DNA from: Acidobacteriota bacterium
Lineage (GTDB): Bacteria; Acidobacteriota; Blastocatellia; UBA7656
DNA: 64,000 nucleotides
Direction of reading: 5' to 3'
Assembly (NCBI GenBank): GCA_040754075.1
Contig: JBFMDH010000001.1
Coordinates: forward strand, 166,262 to 230,261
Each line of letters starts with the position of its first letter. The first letter of the stretch is position 1. The notes under the pieces were generated by a model. It worked only from the letters and a program-made list of their open reading frames with translations, was not told where the DNA came from and did no database searches. A program made the position numbers and the translations under genes. Shown piece by piece: positions 44,125 to 60,423 of the stretch.

Positions 44125-45075
44125 ATGCAGAATGTTAAGCCGAAATTTTCTGTGAAGTATTGGCGATACGCAATCATCGTTTTATCGGGTTTGAGTTCGC
44201 TGGTGTATGTCTATCCGTTTCGGCAAAACGCCCAGTCAAGCATTGAATACAATCCGGCGGTTCAACTCACTACGCTGGAAAATCGAACCATCAATGAAAG
44301 CAGCGGTATTGCGGCATCACATCGCAACCCGGGAATTCTGTGGACGCATAACGATAGCGGCGATGATGCGTTCGTTTATGCCTTCGATAAAAGCGGAAAA
44401 AATCGCGGGGTTTTCAAAATCACCGATGCCAAAGCGATTGATTGGGAAGACCTCGCCAGTTGGAAAGACCCGAAATCCGGCAAGGCATACCTGTACCTTG
44501 GCGACATCGGCAATAATGCAAAAAAACGCCCGTTTTTAACCATCTATCGCGTCGAAGAACCGAAAATCAGCGAAAGGGATTCAGCTAGCAGCAGACAAAA
44601 TCCCATTCCCACAGCCAAAGCCCAAGCCATCAACCTCAAATACCCGGATGGGAATTTCGACGCCGAAACCTTGATGGTGCATCCGGCGACCGGCGATTTG
44701 TACATCATCACTAAAATAATGGGCGCAGCGGCAAAGGTCTTTAAACTTAAAGCGCCGTTTATGCAGAAAGAAGCGACCCTTGTGCAGGTCGGTGAAGTGC
44801 AGGTTCAAAATCCGATGAAAGGATTTTTTACCGGCGGCGATATTGCGCCTGATGGTCGCCGCGTCGCATTGTGCGATTATCTGAGCGGGTTTGAACTCTC
44901 TTTGCCCGATACAAAAGGCATTGAGTTTGACGAAATCTGGAAACAACCGGTGAAGCTTATTAACCTCGGCGCGCGCAAACAGGGCGAAGCGATTTGTTAT
45001 AGCGCGGATGGCAAATCACTCTTGGCAACCAGTGAAGGCGCGCCTTGCCCGTTGATTGAGATTACGCGCAAATAA
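44125..45075 (+). CDS. hypothetical secreted protein (possible beta-propeller)
   Basis: 316 aa. N-terminal hydrophobic segment YAIIVLSGLSSLVYVY. NESSGIAASHRNPGILWTHNDSGD. No confident family call. Confidence 0.4.
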   Translation: MQNVKPKFSVKYWRYAIIVLSGLSSLVYVYPFRQNAQSSIEYNPAVQLTTLENRTINESSGIAASHRNPGILWTHNDSGDDAFVYAFDKSGKNRGVFKITDAKAIDWEDLASWKDPKSGKAYLYLGDIGNNAKKRPFLTIYRVEEPKISERDSASSRQNPIPTAKAQAINLKYPDGNFDAETLMVHPATGDLYIITKIMGAAAKVFKLKAPFMQKEATLVQVGEVQVQNPMKGFFTGGDIAPDGRRVALCDYLSGFELSLPDTKGIEFDEIWKQPVKLINLGARKQGEAICYSADGKSLLATSEGAPCPLIEITRK

Positions 45076-45610: not shown

Positions 45611-45806
45611 TAGGGAAGCCCATCGCTAATAATTTCCGTTCAAGCAAAACTCCTATTGCGGCAGCAAACCGGTTGATTTCGTTTGACTAACCTCGACCTT
45701 TGTATGTTCGCCTTTTTCGTTGGTAATGACGCGGCAAAACGATTGCGCGTTGAAATCGGATGAAGCAGAATGGTTGTGTCATCTCTTGAGCAATAGAAGG
45801 AAAACC

Positions 45807-46064
45807 ATGACGCACAAAGTTTCTATAGAGCTACCGGATTCGGCGTTCGCGGCGTTGCGGAAATCGCCCGATGAATTTGTCCGTGAAATGCGACTTGCGG
45901 CAGTCGTCAAATGGTATGAACTCGGCGAACTATCGCAAAGCAAAGCCGCCGAAATTGTCGGGTTGAGTCGCGCCGAATTTATCAATGTGTTGTCACGTTT
46001 TCGCGTCTCGCCGTTGCAATACACAGCGGAAGAATTACAAGAGGAATTAGCCGGTGAAGATTGA
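45807..46064 (+). CDS. UPF0175 family antitoxin-like protein
   Basis: 85 aa. LRLAAVVKWYELGELSQSKAAEIVGLSRAEFINVLSRFRVSP is typical of UPF0175. Overlaps the downstream gene by 11 nt. Confidence 0.7.
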   Translation: MTHKVSIELPDSAFAALRKSPDEFVREMRLAAVVKWYELGELSQSKAAEIVGLSRAEFINVLSRFRVSPLQYTAEELQEELAGED

Positions 46065-46542
46065 GAGCGTCGTCATAAATGCCTCGCTCTTGATCGTGCT
46101 GTTCAAAAGCGGAATGGGAGATTTGCTGCCGCAACTTTTCAGGGAAATTTATATTCCCGAAGCCGTATGGCAGGAAATCATCGCAGGCGGCGCACAGGAT
46201 ACTGCCGCGCAAAATTTATCTTCCGCGACCTGGGCGCAGCGCGTTACGGTTTCCGTGACCAACCCAATTATCACAGCTTGGAATTTAGGAGCAGGCGAAT
46301 CAGAAGTCTTGAGTTATGCTCTTGAAAACCCCGGTTATCGCGCAATGGTTGATGACGCGGCAGCGCGCGCTTGCGCGAAAACTTTAAACATACCGACGCT
46401 TGGCACAGGCGGCGCAATCGTGTTGGCGAAAAACCGCAACTTGATTGATTCCGTTACTCAAGCATTAGAGGCTTTGCAAAACTCAGGATTATGGCTATCT
46501 GAAAACATTATTCGATTGCTCAAGCAACAAGCCGACGAATAA
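46054..46542 (+). CDS. DUF3368-type PIN-like nucleic-acid-binding protein
   Basis: 162 aa. Pattern VINASLLI...LGAGESEV...DDAAAR...LNIPTLGTGG. Canonical partner of UPF0175. Confidence 0.65.
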   Translation: MKIESVVINASLLIVLFKSGMGDLLPQLFREIYIPEAVWQEIIAGGAQDTAAQNLSSATWAQRVTVSVTNPIITAWNLGAGESEVLSYALENPGYRAMVDDAAARACAKTLNIPTLGTGGAIVLAKNRNLIDSVTQALEALQNSGLWLSENIIRLLKQQADE

Positions 46543-47615: not shown

Positions 47616-48728
47616 ATGAGTAGAGCAAACGGGGCGACTGCTGCGGGTACGCAAAAGTATGTCGAGCGAATGAATGGAACGGCTGCCACCAACCATTTTC
47701 GCAGGCAACAGAATTTGTGCCTGTCTTCCATAGGGCTTGGCACCTATCTCGGTCACTGGGATGACGCAACCGACAAAATGTATGTTGAATCGATCAAACG
47801 CGCCATCGAACTCGGTTGCAATGTGATTGATTCGGCAATCAACTATCGCTTTCAACGCAGCGAACGGGCGATTGGCGCGGCGCTCAAACAGTTATTCGAT
47901 GCGGGCAAAGCCTCGCGGGATGAAATCATTATTGCCACCAAAGGCGGCTATTTTCCTTTCGACGGAGAGCCGCCAACGGATGCTCGCGGCTGGATTATGG
48001 AAAACCTCATCAATACCGGGGCGGCGCAGGTTTCCGACATTGTCGCGGGCAGCCATTGTATGTCGCCAAGCTATCTGGAAAATCAACTCTCGCAGAGTTT
48101 GAAAAACCTCGGTCTTGAAACCATTGATGTTTATTACATTCATAATCCCGAAACCCAGCTTGACGGCGTAAGCCGCAATGAATTTTTAAATCGCCTTCGC
48201 GCCGCTTTTGAATTTCTCGAACAGGCTGTAAGCGATGGTCGGATTCAATTTTATGGCGTGGCGACGTGGAACGGGTTTCGCCAACCGCAACAGGCGCGCG
48301 GCTATCTTTCGCTTGCTGAACTTGTGGAAATCGCCGAAGACCTTGCCGGTGAGGCGCACCATTTTCGGGTCATTCAATTGCCGCACAACTTAGCGATGCC
48401 CGAAGCCTTGACCGCAGATAATCAACCACTTGATGGTGAAACCGTGCCCCCATTGATTGCCGCAGAAAAACTTGGACTAACGGTGATGTGCAGCGCCTCG
48501 ATGATGCAATCGCGGCTTGCGCAAGGTTTGCCGCCGTTTGTTGCCGAGGCGTTTGACAATTTACACACGGACGCGCAACGCGCCATTCAATTCGTGCGTT
48601 CGACGCCCGGGGTGACGACGGCTTTGATTGGTATGAGCCAACGGTCGCACGTTGAAGAAAATTTGATGGTAGCAAAAATGCCACCTGCGCCGATTGAAGA
48701 TTTTATGAAACTCTTTTCGGGGAATTAA
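47616..48728 (+). CDS. aldo/keto reductase
   Basis: 370 aa. GCNVIDSAINYRFQRSERAIG, IDVYYIHNP. AAGGAG Shine-Dalgarno 7 nt upstream. Confidence 0.85.
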   Translation: MSRANGATAAGTQKYVERMNGTAATNHFRRQQNLCLSSIGLGTYLGHWDDATDKMYVESIKRAIELGCNVIDSAINYRFQRSERAIGAALKQLFDAGKASRDEIIIATKGGYFPFDGEPPTDARGWIMENLINTGAAQVSDIVAGSHCMSPSYLENQLSQSLKNLGLETIDVYYIHNPETQLDGVSRNEFLNRLRAAFEFLEQAVSDGRIQFYGVATWNGFRQPQQARGYLSLAELVEIAEDLAGEAHHFRVIQLPHNLAMPEALTADNQPLDGETVPPLIAAEKLGLTVMCSASMMQSRLAQGLPPFVAEAFDNLHTDAQRAIQFVRSTPGVTTALIGMSQRSHVEENLMVAKMPPAPIEDFMKLFSGN

Positions 48729-49091: not shown

Positions 49092-52000
49092 ATGCCGGAA
49101 TATTCCTTTCGTCTGACAATTATTTTTCAGACTTTTGAAAATGACACTGAGCTTGCCGAAGCTCTTTTTTTTCCCGAAATCTCCCGATTTGGCGATAAAG
49201 CGAAAAAATTAGAGAACGCGGTTAAGGAAAATGTCGTGCGCCTTGTCGAAGAAGACGATGCGCTCGCGCTCTATCGTCGTCACTTTACGAGCGAGCCTGA
49301 ACTTGGTGAAGCGCGCGTCACCGTCAATCCGCCACCGAAATCCATCGCCTGGCAAAAGCCGATTGATCTTACTTTTCAAATCCTGCTCTTTACGCATGGC
49401 GAAGACCTGTACATCGCTCACCTTCCACAACTTGGTATCGAAATCATTGGCAGAAACCGGGAAGAACTTGAAGAGAAAATTCCCGCAGAAATTCACGCGC
49501 ATCTCTTACGCATCAAAAAAAATCGCTCACTTGGCGAATTGTTCTGGTTGCAACGCGCCAAAGCGATTCGCCTGGCGCGAACCACTTTTGACGCGACCAT
49601 TCGCACGCCGAAACAGATAGCCAAAAGTCAGTATGCCGCTGACGAAGAGAAAAAATCCGAGCTTGAAAAAGTGGCGACCGATTTAGTCAAAGAGCATTTA
49701 CCGGAGGCTTTTGAGATAGACGAAACCGTCACCCGCATTGCAGACGCGCTTGGCGGTCGCCATCCGCGCAGTGTTTTACTGGTCGGCAAATCGGGCGTCG
49801 GCAAAACCGCTGCGGTGTATGAACTGGTGCGCCGTCGCGCGGCGTTTCGTCTGAGTCGCACACCGTTTTACGCAACCAGCGGCTCGCGACTGGTTGCCGG
49901 CATGTCAGGTTTTGGCATGTGGCAGGAACGTTGCGGCAAAGTCTGGCGCGAGGCTGCAAAACAAAAAGCGATTCTGCATTTCGGCAATCTGCTCGAACTG
50001 ATGGAAGTTGGCAAAAGCACGGCGAACAATCAGGGTATCGCGTCATTCTTTCGCCCCTACATCAGTCGTGGCGATTTGCTCTGCATTGCCGAATGCGCGC
50101 CTGAACAATTGCCCATCATTGAACGCGAAGCGCCAAATCTGCTTGACGCTTTTTTGCAAATTAAAGTTGATGAACCGACAGTTGAACGCGGTTCGGCAAT
50201 TCTGCTGCATTATGCGATTGCGCAAAGCGGGCGCGAGTCGCCGGTTGACCTCGAAGCGATTGAAACGATTGATCGGTTGCATCGCCGCTATGCGACTTAT
50301 TCAGCCTATCCCGGTCGCCCTTTGCGGTTTTTGAAAAATTTATTGCAGGATCGCAAAGGCGGTTCCATCAATGCCGCGATGGTCACTGCGCGTTTTTCCG
50401 AAGAGACCGGTTTGCCGCTATTTTTACTGAACGATGACCTGCCGCTCGATTTAGCGGCGACGCAGAAATTTTTCAGTGAACGGGTCATCGGACAAGCGAG
50501 CGCCGTTGAGTTGGTGGTTAATTTACTGGCGACCGTCAAAGCGCGGCTCACGCGAGCCGGAAAACCGATTGCGTCGTTGATGTTCATCGGGCCCACCGGC
50601 GTTGGCAAAACCGAAATGGCAAAGGCGCTTGCCGAATTCTTATTTCAAAATCGCAATCGCCTGATTCGTTTCGATATGAGCGAATATGCCGATGTGAATT
50701 CCATCGGGCGACTGATTGGCGGCGCGTGGGGAAAAGAAGGCTTGCTTACCGCGAAGGTGCGCGAACAACCGTTTGCGGTGATTCTGCTTGATGAATTTGA
50801 GAAAGCCCATCCGTCATTTTTCGATTTGTTGTTGCAGGTTCTGGGCGAAGGTCGTTTGACCGATGCGATGGGGCGGGTTGCCGATTTTACCAACGCGGTG
50901 GTGATTATGACTTCCAATCTCGGCGCGGAAACTTATAAACGCAATGCGCTGGGGTTTCGTGACGCGACGGATGCCACTGCGCAGGCTCGCGAACATTTTA
51001 TGAAAGCGGTGCAGGCATTTGTGCGTCCCGAATTTTTCAACCGCATCGACCGTATCGTGCCGTTTACACCGCTTGATGAAGCGACCGTATTGAAAATTGC
51101 CCATCGTGAACTGCAACAGATTACGCGACGCGATGGCATTTTCTATCGCGGGGTTGAATTAAATATTACCGAGCAGGTGGCTGAGCGATTGGCGCGAATC
51201 GGCTACGATGCGCGGTATGGGGCGCGACCTCTGAAACGCGCCATCGAACGAGAATTGCTGGTGCCGATTTCCGAAGCGTTGAATTTGCAAACCCTCGATG
51301 TCGGTTTACAGGCGGAGGTGACTGTCGAAGGCGATGAATTGAGTGTAGCGGTGCGCCTTAAAACCGATGAAGCCGGGCGCGTGATTTCCAAATCGTCGAA
51401 GAGCGCGCCGTTTGCCGAACTGGTAAAACAGGCGGCGAAACTCCGCCGCGATGCGCAGAACCTGCGTGGCAGTATCTTTGTTCAGGAGATTCAAAACGAA
51501 ATATTCAACCTTGAACGACTGGCGATGCGGCTTGCGAAAAATAAAACAAAAAATAAATGGCAAGACCCGGCGCAAGCTACAAGCCTTGCGCGGTTGCCCG
51601 ATTTGAAAAATAAATTACAGGCGCTTGAGGTATTCGTCACCCAAACGGCGCAATTTGAAGACGCCGTGTTGTTCTGTTTTTACGGCAAGGAGACCGGCGA
51701 TAAAAACGGTTTGCAGGCGCAACTTGCCGGGATGCAAAAACAGTGGACGGCGCGGTTGTTGGAAATTTACGGATTGCAATTTAAAAAGCCGGATGCGGTG
51801 ACGGTGGCGCTCTATTCGGAAAATGCCAACTGGTTATTTGAACTGGCGCGTGCCTATTTTGAAATCGCGAAACAAATCATGGCGAACGTCGAGGTTGTGG
51901 AATTTGCGGTGCCGTCGCATCAGGAAAGCGAAGCGATAAAGCTTCGCGTCAAAGCCGGTGAAAAAGTTGAGGTTTTTAATTTGCTGGGGCGCGTGACCAT

Positions 52001-52394
52001 TAAACGCCAGGTGAAAAAGCCGGAGGAATTTTTATCCGCGCCGAACGCGCAAACCGTTGGTATCGTGTTGGGCATAGCGGGTGAAATGGTGTTTCCGAGA
52101 TTTGAACCCGAACATGATTTGCACGCCATGACGGTTGCCAAACAAACCCATAACTGTTTGGTACATACCAGTGAAGCGCGCCTCGAAGATTACCTGCCGG
52201 TGAAAGAATTGGATAAACGCGGCAGCATCAAGCATCAGGACGCGCGACGCCTTTATAACCGCGACGACAGCTCGGTTGAAGATTTGTCGCTTGAAGAGAA
52301 ATTTTACTTAGACCGTGATAATTTAGTTGCGGTTGTGCATCAGGCGATTGAACGCCGCTTGCTCAAAAGCGCGCAAGGATTGCTGGATGAATGA
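49092..52394 (+). CDS. atypical ClpA/ClpC-like double-AAA+ ATPase with novel N-domain and C-terminal release-factor-like module (paralogue 1)
   Basis: 1100 aa.
- NBD1: Walker A GKSGVGKT; Walker B position reads AILHFGNLLEL (no acidic pair).
- NBD2: GPTGVGKT, ILLDEFEKAH, TSNLG, GARPLKRAIEREL.
- LGF at aa 620-622, at the ClpA IGL-loop position.
- C-terminal aa ~775-1100 aligns with RF1/RF2 motifs (see findings). Confidence 0.85.
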   Translation: MPEYSFRLTIIFQTFENDTELAEALFFPEISRFGDKAKKLENAVKENVVRLVEEDDALALYRRHFTSEPELGEARVTVNPPPKSIAWQKPIDLTFQILLFTHGEDLYIAHLPQLGIEIIGRNREELEEKIPAEIHAHLLRIKKNRSLGELFWLQRAKAIRLARTTFDATIRTPKQIAKSQYAADEEKKSELEKVATDLVKEHLPEAFEIDETVTRIADALGGRHPRSVLLVGKSGVGKTAAVYELVRRRAAFRLSRTPFYATSGSRLVAGMSGFGMWQERCGKVWREAAKQKAILHFGNLLELMEVGKSTANNQGIASFFRPYISRGDLLCIAECAPEQLPIIEREAPNLLDAFLQIKVDEPTVERGSAILLHYAIAQSGRESPVDLEAIETIDRLHRRYATYSAYPGRPLRFLKNLLQDRKGGSINAAMVTARFSEETGLPLFLLNDDLPLDLAATQKFFSERVIGQASAVELVVNLLATVKARLTRAGKPIASLMFIGPTGVGKTEMAKALAEFLFQNRNRLIRFDMSEYADVNSIGRLIGGAWGKEGLLTAKVREQPFAVILLDEFEKAHPSFFDLLLQVLGEGRLTDAMGRVADFTNAVVIMTSNLGAETYKRNALGFRDATDATAQAREHFMKAVQAFVRPEFFNRIDRIVPFTPLDEATVLKIAHRELQQITRRDGIFYRGVELNITEQVAERLARIGYDARYGARPLKRAIERELLVPISEALNLQTLDVGLQAEVTVEGDELSVAVRLKTDEAGRVISKSSKSAPFAELVKQAAKLRRDAQNLRGSIFVQEIQNEIFNLERLAMRLAKNKTKNKWQDPAQATSLARLPDLKNKLQALEVFVTQTAQFEDAVLFCFYGKETGDKNGLQAQLAGMQKQWTARLLEIYGLQFKKPDAVTVALYSENANWLFELARAYFEIAKQIMANVEVVEFAVPSHQESEAIKLRVKAGEKVEVFNLLGRVTIKRQVKKPEEFLSAPNAQTVGIVLGIAGEMVFPRFEPEHDLHAMTVAKQTHNCLVHTSEARLEDYLPVKELDKRGSIKHQDARRLYNRDDSSVEDLSLEEKFYLDRDNLVAVVHQAIERRLLKSAQGLLDE

Positions 52395-52550
52395 TTGTTT
52401 GAATTAAAAAAATAAACCGCAGAGGATGCCAGGGGGTAACAGAGGAGGACAGAGAACTCGAAGTAAATTACGGTTTTTACTCTGCGTCGTTTGCGATGTC
52501 GAGAATGGGCAATTATCAATAACTCATAGTAAAAGCAATTTAAAACCGCT

Positions 52551-55500
52551 GTGAACATAACGCTTCCGATTTACATTCAAAAACCTGCGCCGCAAGACAC
52601 CTTGCCGCCGACGCATATTCTGCGCCCGCTGTTTTTCCCCTATATCGAAGTGCAGGGCGAAGACCTCAATCGCGCCGTCACCAAGCTGGCGCAAAAGATT
52701 CGCCACGAGTGTGACCGACTCGGTAAGGCGATGCGTCACGACCAACTTTCAAAATTTGGTTTCGCGCCTGACCTCGAAGACCGCTTTTTGAAACTCACGC
52801 TCGACCTCGGCAGTCGAAAAGCCGAGTGCAATTTTCTATTTGTCGTCATGCAAACGGTGGGGCGCAAAATTGCTTTTACTCCGGCGCTTGCCGATTTATG
52901 GTTTGAGATTCATCGCGGCGAAACCTTAGTCAACCGCGCCACCGAAGTTCTGTCGCATTACTTTCGCCAGAAACAGAAACGCGAAGGCAACGATGCCCTG
53001 AGACCCGAAGCCTTTTCGGTCAGCGGTAAAGCCTGGGTAACGACGCTCGACATCAGCATCAATCCACCGGCGCGCGCGCCCAAGCTTGTGCAAAATCTCT
53101 TTGCCCTGCTTGGCGAAGCGCCGCAGATGGATGGCGCGGAAGAACTCAATCGCGTCGGGCGATGCCTCGATTATCTTTACCCGGACGATTTGCAGCGGGT
53201 GATTTTTCGGGAGACGGAAACTGAAGCCTTGACCGCGATTTTGAAATCGCAGGACAAACGCCCGGTGCTGTTAATCGGCGAACGCCTGGTCGGAAAGACG
53301 GCGATCATTCACGAATATGTGCATCGCGCTGTGAGCCAACGTCACTCGAAATTCGACGCGAAAAATCAAGTGTGGTTGATTGCGCCGCAACGGTTGATTT
53401 CGGGAATGTCTTACGTCGGGCAGTGGGAAAACCGTCTGCTGGCGATTTTGAAAGTTGCGAAAAAAAAGCAACACATTCTCTACTTCGATGATTTGCTCGG
53501 ACTCTATCAAGCCGGGCAGAGCGCCAGTTCTTCTCTAAGCGTTGCCGATGTTTTAAAACCTTATGTAGAAAAACGCGAAGTGCGCATCCTTGGCGAAATC
53601 ACTCCCGAAGCCTTTCGGGTATTTCAGGAACGCGACCGCGGCTTTGCCGATTCCTTTCATCTGTTGCCGGTCAAAGAACCCGATGAAGATAAAACCTTTC
53701 GCATTCTTCTGCATTTGATGCGCGAGCTTGAGCGCAAACATCGCGCCACTTTTTCTACGGATGTTTTTCCGACAGTGATGGATGTGCAGCGACGCTACAC
53801 ACGCGATGCGGTGTTCCCCGGCAAGGCGGCGATTTTCCTGCAACAACTCGCCGTCAAATATCGCCACGAGCGCGTCACCCGCGATGAAGTATTACAGGAG
53901 TTTCACGCGAAAAGCGGTTTCAGCTTGAATTTTTTGAATGATGAAAACAAACTCACACGGCAAGAGGTAATCGAAGCGGTCGGCAATACGGTCATCGGGC
54001 AGGAGGCGGCGCTTGCTGCCTGTGCGGATGTGGTGTCGATGGCAAAGGCGCGGCTCAATGACCCAGACCGCCCGCTCGCGTCGTTTCTGTTTTTAGGACC
54101 CACAGGGGTTGGCAAAACCCAATGCGCGAAATCGCTTGCGGCATATCTGTACGGCGATGGCGATAAACTTATTCGTTTCGATATGAATGAATATTCGTCG
54201 CCCTATGCGGTGGCAAGACTGGTCGGCACATTCCATCAACCCGAAGGATTGCTCACCAGCGCCGCGCGGCGGCAACCGTTTTCGGTAGTGTTGTTTGATG
54301 AAATCGAAAAGGCGCACCCGGATGTTTTCAATCTTTTATTGCAGGTAATGGGTGACGGGCGGCTTACGGATGCGCTCGGACGAACGGTCGATTTTACCAA
54401 CGCGATGGTCATTTTAACCTCGAACCTCGGCGTCAAAGAGGCTGCGAAAAATCTGGGCTTTCATCGTGACAGAGAACGCGATGGGCAGGTTTATACGCAA
54501 GCCGCCGAGAAATTTTTCAAGCCGGAATTTTTCAATCGCCTCGACCGCATCGTGCCGTTTGCAAGGCTCGGACGCGAAGAGGTGATGCAGATTGCCGAAG
54601 GGTTGATTCAACAGGTTTTTGCGCGTGAAGGATTGGTGCGCCGCAAATGTATTTTACAGGTGGATGAACGGGCAATGGCGCGCATTGTTGAGGAAGGTTA
54701 TCACCCACAACTCGGAGCGCGCGCCCTGAAACGCCTGCTTGAACGCGAGTTGACCCAACCGGTGGCAAGACAACTTGCGACTCTTAAACCCGATGCGCCC
54801 ACGCTCATTAAAGTTTATCCGGCGGCAAGTGAGCTAAAAGTTACGGTCGATTCATTGAAAGGCGCAACGTTGAATGATGAGAGCGCAAGGTTGATTGAAG
54901 GGGTTGCGCCAAAACAGATTGTTGAGCTTGCGGAAGCCGCAGTTGACCGCATTGAATCGCAGGCGGCAAAGATGAGTCCGCAAGGGCTGATCAATCCCGA
55001 TGCCGTGGATGCTACACAACTCGCCTATTTTCAAATTCGCGAACAGGCGCGCCGGGCGCGTGAACTTTGTGAAAAGGTCGCGGCAAAAATCAAACCAACC
55101 GGAAAGCCACTGGTGTCGCGTTCACGCGGTCGCAGCATTGCGGCTTCGCAATTCACTTTGCGTCAGGTAAGCGTCGGAGATTTATGGCAACGATTGATTG
55201 AAGCGGGTGATGTGCGTCAGTTGATGCGCGAACTGCTAACCACTGCCCAACCCTATGGTGAACGCCTCGAAGATTACCTTTCAGAGTTAACGCGCGAGAC
55301 CGCCTTGCTTGAGGTGATTGCGCAAAGCAACGATGAGGTTTCAACCCATCAGGCATTGATGTTGATTCAATCGCTGGACGAAGCCTTTAAAGTCGAGCGT
55401 GAACGGCTGGCAAAAATTTATCACGAACTCTTTACCTATAAACTGGGAAGCCGCGCAGAGTTATTGACCGGCAATCAGGAGGCGGCGGCTTTGCACAGCG

Positions 55501-55877
55501 ATGCCGTGTTGATTCAAGGCGTAAATGTGTTGGCGCTGGCTAAACCCGAAACCGGCGCTCACCTGTTTTACACGGCTAAAGAACAACTCGTGCCGTTGCA
55601 AATTCACGTCTTGCCGGTAATTGACCATTCCGCAGCCGCGACGATTCGCCGGTTTGCTGAAAGTCAGAAGAGGCGATTAAGCGAGCCGGTCGATACCAAC
55701 GAAACCGATTTAAACGAGGCATCGGTTATTCGGGTTTATGAAGAGAACGGCGCGACGCTTGATTTACGCTCAGGACTGATGACGCTCAAGATGCCGACGA
55801 CGAAAGAACTGCGCGCCTTGTTACTTGCGGCTTTGCCATTGCCAATGGAGATGCAATCGGTAGTCGGTAGCCGGTAG
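52551..55877 (+). CDS. atypical ClpA/ClpC-like double-AAA+ ATPase with novel N-domain and C-terminal release-factor-like module (paralogue 2)
   Basis: 1108 aa, GTG start.
- NBD1: GERLVGKT; Walker B ILYFDDLL.
- NBD2: GPTGVGKT, VLFDEIEKAH, TSNLG, GARALKRLLEREL.
- LGF at aa 635-637.
- C-terminal aa ~785-1108 is RF-like (ETGAHLF, IRVYEENGATLDLRSG). Confidence 0.85.
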   Translation: MNITLPIYIQKPAPQDTLPPTHILRPLFFPYIEVQGEDLNRAVTKLAQKIRHECDRLGKAMRHDQLSKFGFAPDLEDRFLKLTLDLGSRKAECNFLFVVMQTVGRKIAFTPALADLWFEIHRGETLVNRATEVLSHYFRQKQKREGNDALRPEAFSVSGKAWVTTLDISINPPARAPKLVQNLFALLGEAPQMDGAEELNRVGRCLDYLYPDDLQRVIFRETETEALTAILKSQDKRPVLLIGERLVGKTAIIHEYVHRAVSQRHSKFDAKNQVWLIAPQRLISGMSYVGQWENRLLAILKVAKKKQHILYFDDLLGLYQAGQSASSSLSVADVLKPYVEKREVRILGEITPEAFRVFQERDRGFADSFHLLPVKEPDEDKTFRILLHLMRELERKHRATFSTDVFPTVMDVQRRYTRDAVFPGKAAIFLQQLAVKYRHERVTRDEVLQEFHAKSGFSLNFLNDENKLTRQEVIEAVGNTVIGQEAALAACADVVSMAKARLNDPDRPLASFLFLGPTGVGKTQCAKSLAAYLYGDGDKLIRFDMNEYSSPYAVARLVGTFHQPEGLLTSAARRQPFSVVLFDEIEKAHPDVFNLLLQVMGDGRLTDALGRTVDFTNAMVILTSNLGVKEAAKNLGFHRDRERDGQVYTQAAEKFFKPEFFNRLDRIVPFARLGREEVMQIAEGLIQQVFAREGLVRRKCILQVDERAMARIVEEGYHPQLGARALKRLLERELTQPVARQLATLKPDAPTLIKVYPAASELKVTVDSLKGATLNDESARLIEGVAPKQIVELAEAAVDRIESQAAKMSPQGLINPDAVDATQLAYFQIREQARRARELCEKVAAKIKPTGKPLVSRSRGRSIAASQFTLRQVSVGDLWQRLIEAGDVRQLMRELLTTAQPYGERLEDYLSELTRETALLEVIAQSNDEVSTHQALMLIQSLDEAFKVERERLAKIYHELFTYKLGSRAELLTGNQEAAALHSDAVLIQGVNVLALAKPETGAHLFYTAKEQLVPLQIHVLPVIDHSAAATIRRFAESQKRRLSEPVDTNETDLNEASVIRVYEENGATLDLRSGLMTLKMPTTKELRALLLAALPLPMEMQSVVGSR

Positions 55878-55885
55878 CCGGTTAT
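55858..55885. repeat. (CGGTAGC)-type heptamer array overlapping the last codons and stop of AAA+ paralogue 2
   Basis: cggtagt cggtagc cggtagc cggttat. Encodes ...SVVGSR*. Confidence 0.75.
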
Positions 55886-55941
55886 GTGTTTAGTGGTTGA
55901 ATAGAGCGAGGAAGGCTTATGATAAAAAACCGGAGGTAATT

Positions 55942-56553
55942 ATGAGGAACTTCATGTACTGCTTTTTATTTTTATCAAGCCTTTTGACCTTATTGTTGAT
56001 GGTCACGCCGACCGCGAAAGCCTGTACACGCGCCGGCCCGTTTACGTTTAATGAGTTATTCGATAATGCAGAGGTGATTGTGCGGGCTACCGCCGTTAAG
56101 TATGCAAAGGTTCCTGATAATCCGAATATGCGGACAACGGGAGAGCCGGATTCAATTATTCAATTCAAGGTTGAAGAAATACTGAGAGGCAAAAACCTCG
56201 CGAGTACCATCCTGCTCAATGGTTATTTGAGTGATAGTGATGATTACAACGAACAGCCTGTACCTTATACCTTCGTCCGTCCGAATGGTCGCGATGGAAG
56301 TTGCTTTGCGAATACCTATAAACAAGGCGGGCAATTTCTCTTGTTTTTAAAAAAAGTCGACAGTGAATATACGCCCAATATCAGCGCACTTGGCCCAACC
56401 AATGAACAATTGCGAGATGAAAACGACCCCTGGTTGAAATGGGTTAAAGAGCATTTGAAAACCGAAACGAAGCGCAAGCCGCGACTTGCGCTGAACTGGA
56501 AATCACAATTCATAATCGAACACCTCTTCGATAGGGATTGGATATTGGTTTAG
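55942..56553 (+). CDS. hypothetical secreted protein embedded in the AAA+ cluster
   Basis: ATG at 55942 preceded by ggagg. MRNFMYCFLFLSSLLTLLLMVTPTAKAC signal peptide. No recognised domain. Visibly AT-richer than the flanking AAA+ genes (by eye). Confidence 0.55.
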   Translation: MRNFMYCFLFLSSLLTLLLMVTPTAKACTRAGPFTFNELFDNAEVIVRATAVKYAKVPDNPNMRTTGEPDSIIQFKVEEILRGKNLASTILLNGYLSDSDDYNEQPVPYTFVRPNGRDGSCFANTYKQGGQFLLFLKKVDSEYTPNISALGPTNEQLRDENDPWLKWVKEHLKTETKRKPRLALNWKSQFIIEHLFDRDWILV

Positions 56554-56643
56554 CCATTCAGGGACATCAAAAAACGGGCAAGGATATTTGAGGTGTTGAG
56601 ATTGAACCTCCTTCGCCCGCTCTTATAAACGTTAAAGGAAAGA

Positions 56644-58950
56644 ATGCCGAGTTTTCGTTTTCCAATTTTAATCTGGGAAGACCACGAAGGATATTTTACC
56701 GCGTGTCCGGTCGAGGGTTTTTATAACACTTTTGCGGGAATAGGTCGCAGTGCCAGTGAAGCGGTTTTTCAATTGAAAGAATTTCTCGCTTATCACTACG
56801 AGAAAAACCCCTGGGCAGCGCCGCCCGATTTTCACGACGCCAAACTCATCGAATTTCGCGCTGATGTGCGCCCGGAATATCGCATTGAAGAAATTGTCGG
56901 CGACCGCAAACAAAAAAATATTTACCCGACCGAAGAAACCCTCGCCTTGCGTTTTGCCTGTGTACACGGCAAACAGCAAGCCGGATTGCTCATCTGTGTG
57001 CTGCCGCTTTTCGGCATACAATTTTATTACTACGATGAAAAGAAACTGAAAGAACTGGCGGTCACCTATGTGCAGGAGAGTTTCAAAGGTCTTGCCCCAC
57101 AACAACTCACAAGATTCTTACCGCCTAAAAATTATCGACTTGATGAAATCGTCATCAATGTTTCACGCAAAGAAACCAGATACGAATACCAACCCTCGCT
57201 TGACACCTTGAACGAAATTGCCGAACCCCTCGGCGACAAACGATTGCGCAGACAATTTTCCGCCGCCTGGGAGCGTGACACGGAAGTTAGAGACCTCGCC
57301 CAGCGCATCGGCAAAGAGAAAGCCAACGTCATCATCGTCGGCGACAGCGGCATCGGTAAAACCACTTTGCTGGTGAACGCGGTGCGTGAAGTTGAACAGC
57401 ATATGATTGCGGGCGATGACGAAGAAAACGCCGGGCGCAAAGCCAGACACCGATTTTATTTGACCAGCGGCGCGCGCATCATCGCAGGGATGCGCTATCT
57501 CGGTCAGTGGGAAGAGCGGGTTGAATCGCTCATTGATGAGCTTGCGGAAATCAATGGCGTGTTATGCGTCGGCAGCATTTTGGACTTAATCCTTGCAGGC
57601 GGTGAAGTGAGCGCCAGCATCGCGGCATTTTTACAGCCCTTTCTGCAACGCGGCGAATTGCAACTCGTAGGCGAAGCGACGCCCACCGAACTCGATGCCT
57701 GCCGAAGATTATTGCCGGGATTTGCCAGCCTGTTTCAAATTCTCAATCTGCAACCGTTCAATCGCGCCCAGGCGATTGCGATTTTGCAACGCGCTTCGGA
57801 AACTTATCAGCGCAATTATCGCATTGAGGCGGCAAGCATCCTGCCGGAACTCGTCTATCGTTTGTTCAATCGCTTCTCGCCTTATCAGGCATTCCCCGGA
57901 AAAGCCATTGCCTTTCTGCATTCGGCATTTGAACGCGCCGAACTTGAACATAAAACGGCAATCACCGGCGAAGACCTGATTCAAAAGTTTGTGCGGCAGA
58001 CCGGACTCCCCGAACTTTTTTTACGCGATGAATTGCCGCTCAACCAGTATGACATCGTTGAATTTTTTGAACAGCAGGTCATCGGGCAACGCGCCGCCTG
58101 TGAAGTTGCGGCAAATCTGGTGACTACATTCAAAGCCGGGTTGAACGACCCGCAACGCCCGATTGGGGTGTTGCTGTTTTGCGGGCCGACCGGGGTTGGC
58201 AAAACCCAACTCGCAAAAGCGATTTCGGAATACCTGTTCGGACAAGGCGAAGAACGCAACCGCTTAATCCGGCTCGATATGAGCGAATATGGCGATTTCG
58301 GCGCGGCAGAACGTTTGATTACCAAGCCCAATGGCGAGCCGAGCGATTTGATTCAGCGGGTACGCCAGCAACCATTCGTTGTGGTGTTGTTCGATGAAAT
58401 CGAAAAAGCCGACGTAGCGGTTTTCGATGCGTTGCTCAGTGTTTTCGATGAAGGGCGCATCACCGACCGTTACGGGCGAACCACTTCATTTCGCAGCGCC
58501 ATCATTATCGCGACGTCGAACATCGGCGCAGATAAAACCGCGAGCATCGGATTCGATGGTCACAATGTGCGCGGTTTTGCCGCGGAGGTGATGACTTTCT
58601 TTCGCCCGGAATTTTTTAATCGCCTGGATGCGGTTGTCGGTTTTCGCGCGCTCGACGAAGAAGCGATTCTCAACGTAACGCGCAAAGAATTAGCTGAGAT
58701 TGCCAAACGCGAAGGGATAAACGCCTCGAATACCAGATTAATTTGGACAGAACGATTAATTGAATATATGGCGAAAGCCGGTTATGACGCGCGATATGGC
58801 GCGCGCCCTTTGCAACGCACCATTGAACAGATGATCGTTGCGCCGCTTTCGCGATTCCTGCTTGAACACCTGATGAGCAAAGGCAAAACCATTCAAGCCG
58901 ATTTCCTCAATGGCGAAATCCGTTTTTCAACTACGGAACATACGGAATAG
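56644..58950 (+). CDS. atypical ClpA/ClpC-like double-AAA+ ATPase with novel N-domain, no C-terminal extension (paralogue 3)
   Basis: 768 aa.
- NBD1: GDSGIGKT; Walker B position reads GVLCVGSILDL.
- NBD2: GPTGVGKT, VLFDEIEKAD, TSNIG, GARPLQRTIEQ.
- IGF at aa 635-637. Confidence 0.85.
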   Translation: MPSFRFPILIWEDHEGYFTACPVEGFYNTFAGIGRSASEAVFQLKEFLAYHYEKNPWAAPPDFHDAKLIEFRADVRPEYRIEEIVGDRKQKNIYPTEETLALRFACVHGKQQAGLLICVLPLFGIQFYYYDEKKLKELAVTYVQESFKGLAPQQLTRFLPPKNYRLDEIVINVSRKETRYEYQPSLDTLNEIAEPLGDKRLRRQFSAAWERDTEVRDLAQRIGKEKANVIIVGDSGIGKTTLLVNAVREVEQHMIAGDDEENAGRKARHRFYLTSGARIIAGMRYLGQWEERVESLIDELAEINGVLCVGSILDLILAGGEVSASIAAFLQPFLQRGELQLVGEATPTELDACRRLLPGFASLFQILNLQPFNRAQAIAILQRASETYQRNYRIEAASILPELVYRLFNRFSPYQAFPGKAIAFLHSAFERAELEHKTAITGEDLIQKFVRQTGLPELFLRDELPLNQYDIVEFFEQQVIGQRAACEVAANLVTTFKAGLNDPQRPIGVLLFCGPTGVGKTQLAKAISEYLFGQGEERNRLIRLDMSEYGDFGAAERLITKPNGEPSDLIQRVRQQPFVVVLFDEIEKADVAVFDALLSVFDEGRITDRYGRTTSFRSAIIIATSNIGADKTASIGFDGHNVRGFAAEVMTFFRPEFFNRLDAVVGFRALDEEAILNVTRKELAEIAKREGINASNTRLIWTERLIEYMAKAGYDARYGARPLQRTIEQMIVAPLSRFLLEHLMSKGKTIQADFLNGEIRFSTTEHTE

Positions 58951-59094: not shown

Positions 59095-59163
59095 TCCTGG
59101 TTTTAATATTTCTGTTGCAGTTTGCGTTGTGCTCATCATTGGTTTGAAGGGAAAATAGTTGCT

Positions 59164-60423
59164 ATGGATAAATTCAGAATTATCGGTGGGCGTCCGCTTG
59201 AAGGTCGCGTGGCAATCAGCGGGGCGAAAAATTCGGCGTTGCCGTGTATGGCTGCGGCTCTGCTCACGGCTGAAAATGTCACGCTTCATAATCTGCCGTA
59301 TGTGCGCGACATCATCACCATGCGGCGATTGCTCGAAGATTTAGGGTGCACGGCATTGATGCCCGAACTGCGCACCCTGAAAATCAATGCCTCAAAGGTC
59401 GAACTCTTTGAAGCGCCTTATGAACTGGTGAAAACCATGCGCGCATCGGTGCTGGCGTTGGGTCCACTGCTGGCGCGATTTGGCGAAGCGCGGGTGAGTT
59501 TGCCCGGTGGTTGCGCGATTGGACAACGCCCGATTGATTTGCATCTCGCGGGCTTTGAAAAACTCGGCGCAGTCGTATCGCTCGAAGGCGGCGACGTGGT
59601 GGCGCGCGCTGAAAGGCTTCGCGGCGCAGAAATTGATTTTGATACGGTGACCGTCACCGGCACGGAAAATTTAATGATGGCGGCGGCGCTCGCCGAAGGC
59701 GAAACCATTTTAAACAATGCAGCGCGTGAGCCTGAGATCGTTGACCTCGCGGAACTCCTGAACAAAATGGGCGCGCGTATCGAAGGCGCGGGTCGCAGTT
59801 CGATGCGCATTCAAGGCGTGAAAACTTTGGGCGGCGCGGAACACACGATTATTCCCGATAGAATCGAAGCCGGTACATTTATCGCAGCGGCGGCGATAAC
59901 CGGCGGCGAACTCGAAATCACCAACTGCAATCCGCAACACATTCACGCCGTCATCTATAAATTGCGCGATACCGGCGTCGTCATCGAAGAAACCAATGCC
60001 TTTTCGCTGAGAGTCAAAGCAGCTCAGCTTTTGCGACATTCGGATGTGACGACGCTGGCGCACCCCGGTTTTCCAACCGACATGCAGGCGCAGTACATGG
60101 CATTGATGACGCTTGCAGAAGGGACGAGTGTGATTACCGAAACCATTTTTGAAAATCGCTTTATGCATGCGTCGGAGTTACTCAGAATGGGCGCGAAGAT
60201 TAAAATCAGCGGGCGGCAGGCGATTGTCGAAGGCAACGAAAAATTGACGGGCGCGAAAATGCAGGCGTCGGATTTGCGGGCGTCGGCGTCATTGGTGATT
60301 GCCGCGCTTGCGGCAGAAGGCGAATCCATCATTGACCGCGTCTATCACATCGACCGGGGCTATGAAAAAATCGAAGAGAAATTACGCGCTGTCGGCGGAC
60401 GAATCGAACGCTTCAGGAGTTAG
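59164..60423 (+). CDS. murA: UDP-N-acetylglucosamine 1-carboxyvinyltransferase
   Basis: MDKFRIIGGRPLEGRVAISGAKNSALP. PGGCAIGQRPIDLH (active-site Cys loop). Start at the ATG at 59164. Confidence 0.95.
   Translation: MDKFRIIGGRPLEGRVAISGAKNSALPCMAAALLTAENVTLHNLPYVRDIITMRRLLEDLGCTALMPELRTLKINASKVELFEAPYELVKTMRASVLALGPLLARFGEARVSLPGGCAIGQRPIDLHLAGFEKLGAVVSLEGGDVVARAERLRGAEIDFDTVTVTGTENLMMAAALAEGETILNNAAREPEIVDLAELLNKMGARIEGAGRSSMRIQGVKTLGGAEHTIIPDRIEAGTFIAAAAITGGELEITNCNPQHIHAVIYKLRDTGVVIEETNAFSLRVKAAQLLRHSDVTTLAHPGFPTDMQAQYMALMTLAEGTSVITETIFENRFMHASELLRMGAKIKISGRQAIVEGNEKLTGAKMQASDLRASASLVIAALAAEGESIIDRVYHIDRGYEKIEEKLRAVGGRIERFRS

Follow-up and report, generated by a model that had tools for sequence, protein, structure and literature searches.

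The locus analysed here lies in a window of 64,000 nucleotides (the whole stretch of DNA under analysis, i.e., positions 166,262 to 230,261 of contig JBFMDH010000001.1 of assembly GCA_040754075.1) from an Acidobacteriota bacterium, and it comprises three paralogous genes, designated A, B and C, that encode divergent relatives of the Clp/Hsp100 unfoldases with two AAA+ modules (D1 and D2) each. Protein A terminates in a class-I release factor (RF) module that has lost its catalytic domain, and the N-terminal region shared by the three proteins is predicted to consist of two tandem HicB-like domains. A preliminary description of the locus, made from the sequence alone, had listed three co-directional open reading frames (ORFs) of 1100, 1108 and 768 aa, the coordinates of which proved exact, with all three genes on the + strand (Table 1). 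The motifs it quoted were all recovered, namely the D1 Walker A sequences GKSGVGKT, GERLVGKT and GDSGIGKT, the D2 Walker A sequence GPTGVGKT, the motifs YPGRPLRFL, FPGKAAIFL and FPGKAIAFL, LLDEFEKA and LFDEIEKA, TSNLG and TSNIG, and GARPLKR, GARALKR and GARPLQR. Its placement of the three genes as a tandem trio between an aldo/keto reductase gene and murA was right as to the flanks and not as to strict contiguity, a 218-aa ORF (ORF X) separating B from C. Pairwise protein identity is 30% between A and B and 35% between A and C, and a protein 100% identical to A occurs in an Acidobacteriota metagenome-assembled genome (MAG), where it bears only the name 'AAA family ATPase'.

Table 1. Coordinates of the A, B and C genes, their domains and the adjoining genes (positions within the window).
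Feature	Position	Strand	Description
Gene A	49092..52394	+	1100 aa; predicted tandem HicB-like N-domains, D1, D2, C-terminal release-factor-like module
A, residues 1-215	49092..49736	+	two predicted tandem HicB-N-like domains (beta-beta-beta-alpha units) at the Clp_N position
A, residues 216-460	49737..50471	+	D1 AAA+ module; Walker A GKSGVGKT at 232-239, Walker B HFGNL, pore loop AGMSGFGMW
A, residues 461-745	50472..51326	+	D2 AAA+ module and D2-small; GPTGVGKT, LLDEFEKA, TSN, NR Arg finger, GAR
A, residues 620-622	50949..50957	+	L-G-F tripeptide, candidate ClpP-docking loop
A, residues 775-1100	51414..52391	+	release-factor-like module of class I; RF domains 1, 2 and 4 kept, GGQ domain 3 lost
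Gene B	52551..55877	+	1108 aa, GTG start; divergent N-domain, D1 (GERLVGKT; LYFDDL), D2 with L-G-F loop, C-terminal extension
B, residues 755-1108	54813..55874	+	C-terminal extension; probable degenerate relative of the A release-factor-like module
ORF X	55897..56553	+	218 aa, hydrophobic signal-peptide-like N-terminus; between B and C
Gene C	56644..58950	+	768 aa; predicted HicB-like N-domain, D1 (GDSGIGKT; LCVGSI), D2 with I-G-F loop; ends after D2-small
Aldo/keto reductase	47616-48728		upstream flank of the trio
EPSP_synthase-family MurA-like gene	59122-60423		downstream flank of the trio

In each of the three proteins Pfam searches detected AAA_2 (E 1e-37 to 1e-47) together with ClpB_D2-small (E 1e-13 to 1e-16), and the D1 modules align to D1 of ClpA and ClpB, so that all three proteins show the arrangement used here to recognise Hsp100/Clp class I, i.e., two tandem AAA+ modules of which the second is an AAA_2 module followed by ClpB_D2-small. 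The same searches returned no Clp_N domain in A, B or C and no match for residues 1-200 or 750-1100, the latter covering the ~350-residue tails of A and B. ClpA could be aligned as a single stretch (205-728) and ClpB as two stretches with ~399-512 unmatched, which shows that the middle (M) domain is absent. These results agree with the preliminary description, which had noted the lack of both the Clp_N repeat domain and a ClpB/ClpC-type M-domain and had proposed the profile searches reported here. Membership of named families was assessed using the NCBIfam equivalog models with their curated cutoffs, and all scores were far below these: 323-378 bits for the ClpB model TIGR03346 (cutoff 1232), 286-373 and 192-284 bits for the ClpA models TIGR02639 (993) and NF008263 (1350), 229-276 bits for ClpV/TssH (885), and 241-310 and 225-296 bits for ClpK and ClpG (1900). 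The earlier impression that the domain organisation is unlike that of ClpA, ClpB, ClpV, ClpK and ClpG is therefore upheld, and A, B and C are divergent double-AAA+ class-I Hsp100-like proteins outside the curated families. Identity of the D2 modules among A, B and C (45-50%) is about equal to their identity to the D2 module of E. coli ClpB (44-48%), so that the case for monophyly of A, B and C is built on derived characters held in common, these being the HicB-like N-domain, a GMxxxGxW loop in D1, a 5-residue deletion in D2 and an h-G-F loop (h, hydrophobic residue).

Single-sequence searches of the N- and C-terminal regions against Pfam, NCBIfam and PADLOC gave no match, and the terminal regions were identified only through family profiles and structure prediction. 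For the C-terminal tail of A, a profile of 25 sequences matched RF2 from Thermus at E 2.5e-4 and a profile of 57 sequences matched RF2 at E 8e-7, with RF2 accounting for all of the 20 best PDB matches. When the tail was submitted to Foldseek, RF1, RF2 or mitochondrial release factors made up 40 of the 40 matches at E<=1e-3, and the next match followed at E 1e-2. The three-domain RF scaffold was modelled with high confidence (predicted local distance difference test, pLDDT, of 92), and the model contains the two elements by which a class-I release factor was recognised here, i.e., the helical bundle of RF domain 1 and the domain 2/4 fold. Positions of A that are conserved in at least 80% of 57 orthologues coincide with RF core motifs: Y922 corresponds to the RF motif rMY, E1007, G1009 and H1011 to E.G.H, R1052, R1053 and Y1055 to IRTYN, and D1064 to TDHR, the IRTYN-equivalent residues adjoining the switch loop. 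R785, R786, N802 and E856 in domain 1 are conserved to the same degree. The homology of the A tail to release factors is thus backed by three independent methods.

The catalytic part of a release factor is missing from this module. The C-terminal half of the tail profile matched RF1 in two pieces (159-200 and 276-349) with ~200-276 unmatched, and where RF domain 3 would be the A tail has a short linker; a conserved GGQ was not found anywhere in A, B or C, and the RF-1 domain of Pfam gave no match in the A tail. The tail of A is accordingly a class-I release-factor module with domains 1, 2 and 4 from which the catalytic GGQ domain 3 has been lost, and with domain 3 and its GGQ deleted it cannot carry out peptidyl-tRNA hydrolysis. 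Profile-profile comparison (hhalign) of the tails of B and A gave a probability of 82% (E 1e-5) over only 38 columns around the G..A...E.G.H motif, and the B tail profile had no match among PDB sequences; on this profile similarity, the B tail is probably a degenerate copy of the RF-like module of A. C has no C-terminal extension.

At least 120 full-length (~1100 aa) orthologues of A were found at 45-73% identity, and they carry only the names 'AAA family ATPase' or ClpA/ClpC, the latter being mislabelled. With the tail profile, 765 clusters (50% identity representatives) were retrieved at E<=1e-3; the tail stands at the C-terminus in every match listed, and most of these proteins are ~1040-1170 aa long, the shorter ones having the appearance of fragments. 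A scan with the D1 alignment of one genome per species confirmed the gene in 250 of 185,579 species genomes. The best 80 of these 250 genomes belong to the Acidobacteriota (Blastocatellia, Pyrinomonadaceae), the Planctomycetota (Gemmataceae, Pirellulales, Tepidisphaerales, Phycisphaerales) and the Verrucomicrobiota.

For the neighbourhood comparison across phyla that the preliminary description had proposed, the loci of these best 80 genomes (hereafter the 80 related loci) were examined by calling ORFs and scoring them with the N-domain, D1 and tail profiles, and 52 of them had enough downstream sequence. The order A-B-C was present in 35 of the 52 loci, with the same sizes (~1100, ~1100 and ~760 aa) and in three phyla, and a further six had A with one paralogue, some of them being cut by contig ends. 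Many of the A-B-C junctions overlap by 4 nt, as is typical of translationally coupled genes. Orthologues had their best match in the corresponding paralogue of the window without exception (31/31 each for A, B and C), and core identity is 54-60% within an orthologue group and 36-37% (maximum 42%) between groups. Such clean orthology together with the conserved order implies that the triplication predates the split of the carrier lineages; the trio is an old conserved operon and not a recent duplication.

Three co-directional paralogues side by side could also be simple redundancy, i.e., an ordinary ClpA/ClpC gene that was recently triplicated in place, with no meaning at the level of a system, but this is hardly credible for paralogues that are only 30-35% identical, that each have their own conserved D1 signature and their own C-terminal state, that separate cleanly into A, B and C orthologues in an order conserved over three phyla and that fall below every curated Clp family cutoff. 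The preliminary description had likewise argued against simple redundancy, and had named as its own refutation a trio that is never co-located in related genomes and stems from recent duplication; both that case and the recent-triplication reading are contradicted by the gene order in the 35 loci and the clean orthology.

Apart from the trio itself, no conserved neighbour was detected in these loci, all-against-all clustering of the flanking ORFs yielding lineage-level synteny in at most 11 loci, and no small upstream ORF was conserved, singleton loci included. With no other conserved neighbour the module appears self-contained. A ~700-aa neighbour in six loci was considered as a partner and rejected, being a Ser/Thr kinase that had been clustered via its kinase domain.

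The N-terminal region of A (residues 1-215) was modelled with AlphaFold2 from a 28-sequence alignment as two beta-beta-beta-alpha units with a pLDDT of 85. The model is HicB-like in fold, sequence identity to HicB being only 11-13%, and a search of the N-terminal profile against PDB sequences gave a chance match only (E 0.37). Compared with the N-domain of A by hhalign, the N-domain of C scored a probability of 96.6% (E 6e-10, 198 columns) and that of B 82% (E 1e-5, 186 columns), so that by profile similarity the N-regions of B and C are homologous to that of A. Going by the predicted fold, the shared region of ~215 aa corresponds to two tandem HicB-like domains that replace Clp_N. Of the HicB antitoxin the trio has the N-terminal fold only, as two tandem copies; unlike in HicAB, the C-terminal DNA-binding domain is missing and AAA+ modules follow instead, and no HicA-like neighbour is conserved. 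The non-canonical ends noticed in the preliminary description are thus real; the N-terminal ones can now be described as HicB-like domains and the C-terminal one as a release-factor module that lacks GGQ.

HicB-like folds are typical of toxin-antitoxin modules, and partial PADLOC matches to DolB (Dodola) and PDC-M37B were obtained (E 1e-19 to 1e-33). Both would suit a role in anti-phage defence or conflict, with the RF-like domain as a sensor of disturbed translation and the AAA+ proteins as the effector. This we consider very unlikely, as the PADLOC matches are limited to ~130-160 residues of the generic AAA_2 core, there is no DolA-like partner, toxin, nuclease or other conserved neighbour, the flanks are housekeeping genes (purL, murA, HIT, peptidases), and orthology and gene order are conserved over phyla and not patchy. 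Membership in Dodola (DolA/DolB) or PDC-M37 was rejected because a full-length DolB match and a DolA partner were both absent.

In the ATPase core, Walker A of D1 is intact in A, B and C, and Walker B of D1 is degenerate in a conserved, paralogue-specific manner, the canonical hhhhDE being absent in all three. It reads H-[LF]-G-N-L in A, with GN replacing DE and singletons alike, Y-F-D-D-L (DD) in B, and C-V-E-N-L (EN) in most C orthologues, the window copy of C having G-S instead. Given the established role of the Walker B Glu in ATP hydrolysis, each D1 probably binds ATP without hydrolysing it. The D1 pore loop has retained its aromatic residue (GMSG[FY]GMW in A, GMS[YF]VGQW in B, GMxYLGQW in C). 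The catalytic set of D2 is complete in all three (GPTGVGKT, DE[FI]EKA, TSN, the NR Arg finger and GAR), with Walker A, Walker B, sensor 1, Arg finger and sensor 2 conserved in all three paralogues, and on these motifs the D2 modules are predicted to be catalytically complete. The differing degenerate D1 sites, the conserved gene order and the apparent translational coupling suggest that A, B and C may form a mixed ring, as the preliminary description had proposed.

About 10 residues past sensor 1, the D2 modules of A, B and C contain an h-G-F tripeptide that aligns with the IGL ClpP-docking loop of ClpA, and at motif level all three proteins thereby carry the [ILV]-G-[FL] D2 loop of the ClpA/ClpC type. 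Its Gly is invariant (A 57/57, B 31/31, C 31/31) and its Phe nearly so in A and C (A 55/57, C 30/31; B 21/31, with Leu in a further 7), the flanking positions being variable. The best PDB match was 5ofo, an engineered ClpP-binding ClpB-ClpA chimera, which scored above wild-type ClpB. LGF-type loops are an accepted marker of ClpP partnership (PMC10149685), and from the motif we infer that the h-G-F loops of the trio dock ClpP.

The ends of the trio proteins as identified here suggest a link to the ribosome, from which we infer a function. The reading that we favour, to which we assign a probability of roughly 0.4, is that the trio constitutes a ClpP-coupled and probably hetero-oligomeric unfoldase, which a catalytically dead mimic of a release factor recruits to the A site of the ribosome. 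The A, B and C subunits would form a ring, probably a mixed one, with A-only rings in the lineages that have just A, and this ring would dock on ClpP via its h-G-F loops. The release-factor mimic would bring the ring to the ribosomal A site or the decoding centre of vacant or stalled ribosomes, and it would act in recognition only, because peptidyl-tRNA hydrolysis is impossible for it. The D2 motor would then extract and degrade a ribosome-bound protein, which might be a trapped factor, a ribosomal protein or a nascent chain. A more specific form of this reading, in which a hetero-hexameric ClpP-coupled Hsp100 of at least three phyla enters the A site of stalled or idle ribosomes and destroys the protein bound there, appears doubtful.

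Several observations weigh against the favoured reading. The RF-like module is located C-terminal to D2-small, i.e., on the ClpP-proximal side of the ring and far from the N-terminal substrate entrance. The positions equivalent to PxT/SPF are variable across A orthologues, and the Glu of helix alpha5 is found in about three quarters of the orthologues, a planctomycete subgroup having His. Judged by these positions, binding, if any, would not be stop-codon-specific and may not be ribosomal at all; stop-codon-specific recognition by the A tail was rejected on account of the variable PxT/SPF equivalents, and since the RF core motifs are kept, the scaffold has been retained and the stop-codon specificity probably not. 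For the B extension, the evidence of an RF-like nature is the 38-column profile match, and A, to which the singletons belong, stands alone in 11 of the 52 genomes, so that neither B nor C is obligatory. The D2 pore loop is 5 residues shorter than that of ClpB and misses the YVGYE segment, hence the canonical GYVG Tyr, and a D2 pore-loop aromatic is kept in about half of the A and B orthologues and in no C. A pore loop altered in this way argues against ordinary processive threading into ClpP, as far as can be judged from its sequence.

Several of these points are also what would be expected if the same machine used its RF-like module off the ribosome, be it as a regulatory or oligomerisation arm in place of the missing M-domain or as a platform for a non-ribosomal partner (e.g., a release-factor-binding protein or a tRNA-like RNA), the complex being a specialised stress protease or disaggregase. 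The module is joined to the periphery of D2, its stop-codon-reading positions are unconserved, the version in B is degenerate and C has none, and RF domain 1 is a long helical bundle resembling the coiled-coil M-domain that the trio lacks. We hold this possible, though rather unlikely, in view of the whole three-domain scaffold that has been kept (pLDDT 92), the conservation over three phyla of RF core motifs near the switch loop, which goes beyond the needs of a spacer arm, and the lack of a partner gene conserved beside the operon. The short, Tyr-less D2 pore loop, for its part, would fit remodelling better than processive translocation, and it could be taken, together with a D1 that is non-hydrolytic by its motifs and the RF homology of the A tail, to indicate a ClpP-independent ribosome remodeller that docks in the A site and uses ATP for splitting, clearing, silencing or factor stripping without degradation. 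Such a remodeller is distinctly less probable, because an h-G-F tripeptide with little or no variation in any of the three paralogues, placed exactly where ClpA has its IGL, is hard to explain without ClpP.

The favoured reading, recruitment of a ClpP-coupled unfoldase by a release-factor mimic, was also compared with known systems. Known bacterial Clp unfoldases recognise their substrates via Clp_N, zinc-finger or adaptor domains, and the known systems of bacterial ribosome rescue and quality control are tmRNA/SmpB, ArfA, ArfB, PrfH/RtcB and RqcH. With ClpA/ClpC the trio shares two AAA+ modules, AAA_2 with D2-small, the lack of a long ClpB-type M-domain, and an h-G-[FL] loop at the position of the ClpA IGL. 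It differs from them in having tandem HicB-like domains instead of Clp_N, a degenerate D1 Walker B, a D2 pore loop that is shorter by 5 residues and without the GYVG Tyr, a release-factor-like C-terminal module of ~330 aa in A that is degenerate in B, and three obligate-looking paralogues in one operon. With RF1/RF2 the A tail has in common the helical bundle of domain 1, the domain 2/4 superdomain and the motifs rMY, E.G.H, RTY(N) and (T)D(HR), but it lacks domain 3 with its GGQ, does not conserve PxT/SPF, and does not stand free but is fused to an AAA+ unfoldase. PrfH keeps GGQ and is without domain 1, and ArfB consists of the GGQ domain only, a pattern opposite to that of the A tail. Pex1/Pex6-type complexes are hetero-hexameric double-ring AAA+ machines of eukaryotes that belong to a different AAA+ clade and have no protease partner; they offer an analogy to the trio as a putative hetero-oligomer, their subunits being likewise paralogues that combine an active D2 ring with a D1 ring that is inactive and degenerate in Walker B.

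In the ribosome-associated quality control of eukaryotes, the release-factor-fold protein Vms1 is paired with a double-ring AAA+ unfoldase, Cdc48/p97 (PMC6514570), and the likeness to the trio is a functional analogy only. The fold of Vms1 is the archaeo-eukaryotic one of eRF1, and the protein has catalytic activity and binds Cdc48 non-covalently; in the trio an RF module of bacterial type, catalytically dead, is joined covalently to an Hsp100, and the two arrangements are not homologous. Full-text literature searches, the coverage of which is incomplete so that an earlier description is possible, returned no description of a Clp or AAA+ protein fused to a bacterial release-factor scaffold, and no such fusion appears in the survey of release-factor evolution by Burroughs and Aravind (PMC6514570) or in the paper on new Clp classes (PMC10149685). 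The trio is therefore an apparently undescribed Clp/Hsp100 unfoldase, in which three paralogues are conserved together and the putative targeting module is without precedent. Should the module bind ribosomes, it would represent a new route of aiming proteolysis at the translation machinery in abundant, poorly studied soil and water phyla, and the more specific, hetero-hexameric form of the favoured reading, if true, would add to bacterial ribosome quality control or turnover a branch not known before, one that converges on the logic of Vms1-Cdc48. Whatever its function, the GGQ-less module is an unusual natural dissection of a release factor, in which the catalytic insert is gone and the parts for decoding and stalk binding remain, and as such it is informative for release-factor evolution. 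A conserved trio of A, B and C whose D1 ring is dead and whose D2 ring is active would moreover be a rare example among bacteria of a hetero-oligomeric Hsp100.

Some further observations concern the carrier genomes. The best 80 of the 250 genomes are all metagenome-assembled, and no cultured isolate is among them, which would restrict access for experiments unless isolates occur among the other ~170. Seven of the loci (L012, L014, L017, L025, L041, L043 and L076) come from third-party annotation (TPA) MAGs labelled 'uncultured Clostridia', 'Heliobacteriaceae' or 'Alcaligenaceae'; D1 of their A genes is 57-67% identical to the window copy, a range like that of the Acidobacteriota and Planctomycetota loci, and the taxonomic labels of these MAGs look unreliable. 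D1 identity to the window copy is higher in the Planctomycetota loci L028-L042 (56-61%) than in the Pyrinomonadaceae loci L049-L067 (52-55%), although the Pyrinomonadaceae share their class with the closest relatives of the window, and this could reflect transfer between phyla or rate variation. In one Pyrinomonadaceae MAG (L046, 2549-6389) A is split into three ORFs of 645, 315 and 318 aa and C is fragmented too, which could be due to pseudogenisation or to assembly frameshifts.

Some loci of the Gemmataceae type, L054 included, have a gap of 2.3-2.7 kb between A and B, and a gene for a Ser/Thr protein kinase of ~620-640 aa lies in the A-B gap of L074 (4315-6171) and L076 (6680-8596). Upstream of a singleton A in L004 lies a gene for a kinase that has PatA_N and DnaJ domains. 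Since the kinase genes were clustered only through their kinase domain, a functional link to the operon is unproven.

The true start of ORF X likely lies at MRNFMYCFLFLSS... within the reading frame given in Table 1. No match to ORF X was obtained in Pfam, NCBIfam or PADLOC, and no homologue was found in the 80 related loci. The gap between B and C in relatives is mostly -199 to +167 nt. ORF X looks like a lineage-specific insertion into the operon and, though inside it, is probably not part of the Clp system.

An Rfam scan of the window returned no RNA family, and promoter and terminator scans of the window gave results at or below the shuffled expectation. The genes flanking the trio are of housekeeping type, with a purL-like gene, a GNAT acetyltransferase gene, a UPF0175/DUF3368 pair, an alpha/beta hydrolase gene and the aldo/keto reductase gene upstream, and the MurA-like gene, a HIT gene and an M28 peptidase gene downstream. 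The interval between the purL-like gene and the GNAT acetyltransferase gene contains an ORF of 316 aa without a Pfam match (window 44125-45075, +). The UPF0175 (114 aa) and DUF3368 (162 aa) genes overlap by 11 nt and are situated ~2.5 kb upstream of A (window 45720-46542, +); the pair looks like a toxin-antitoxin-type module.

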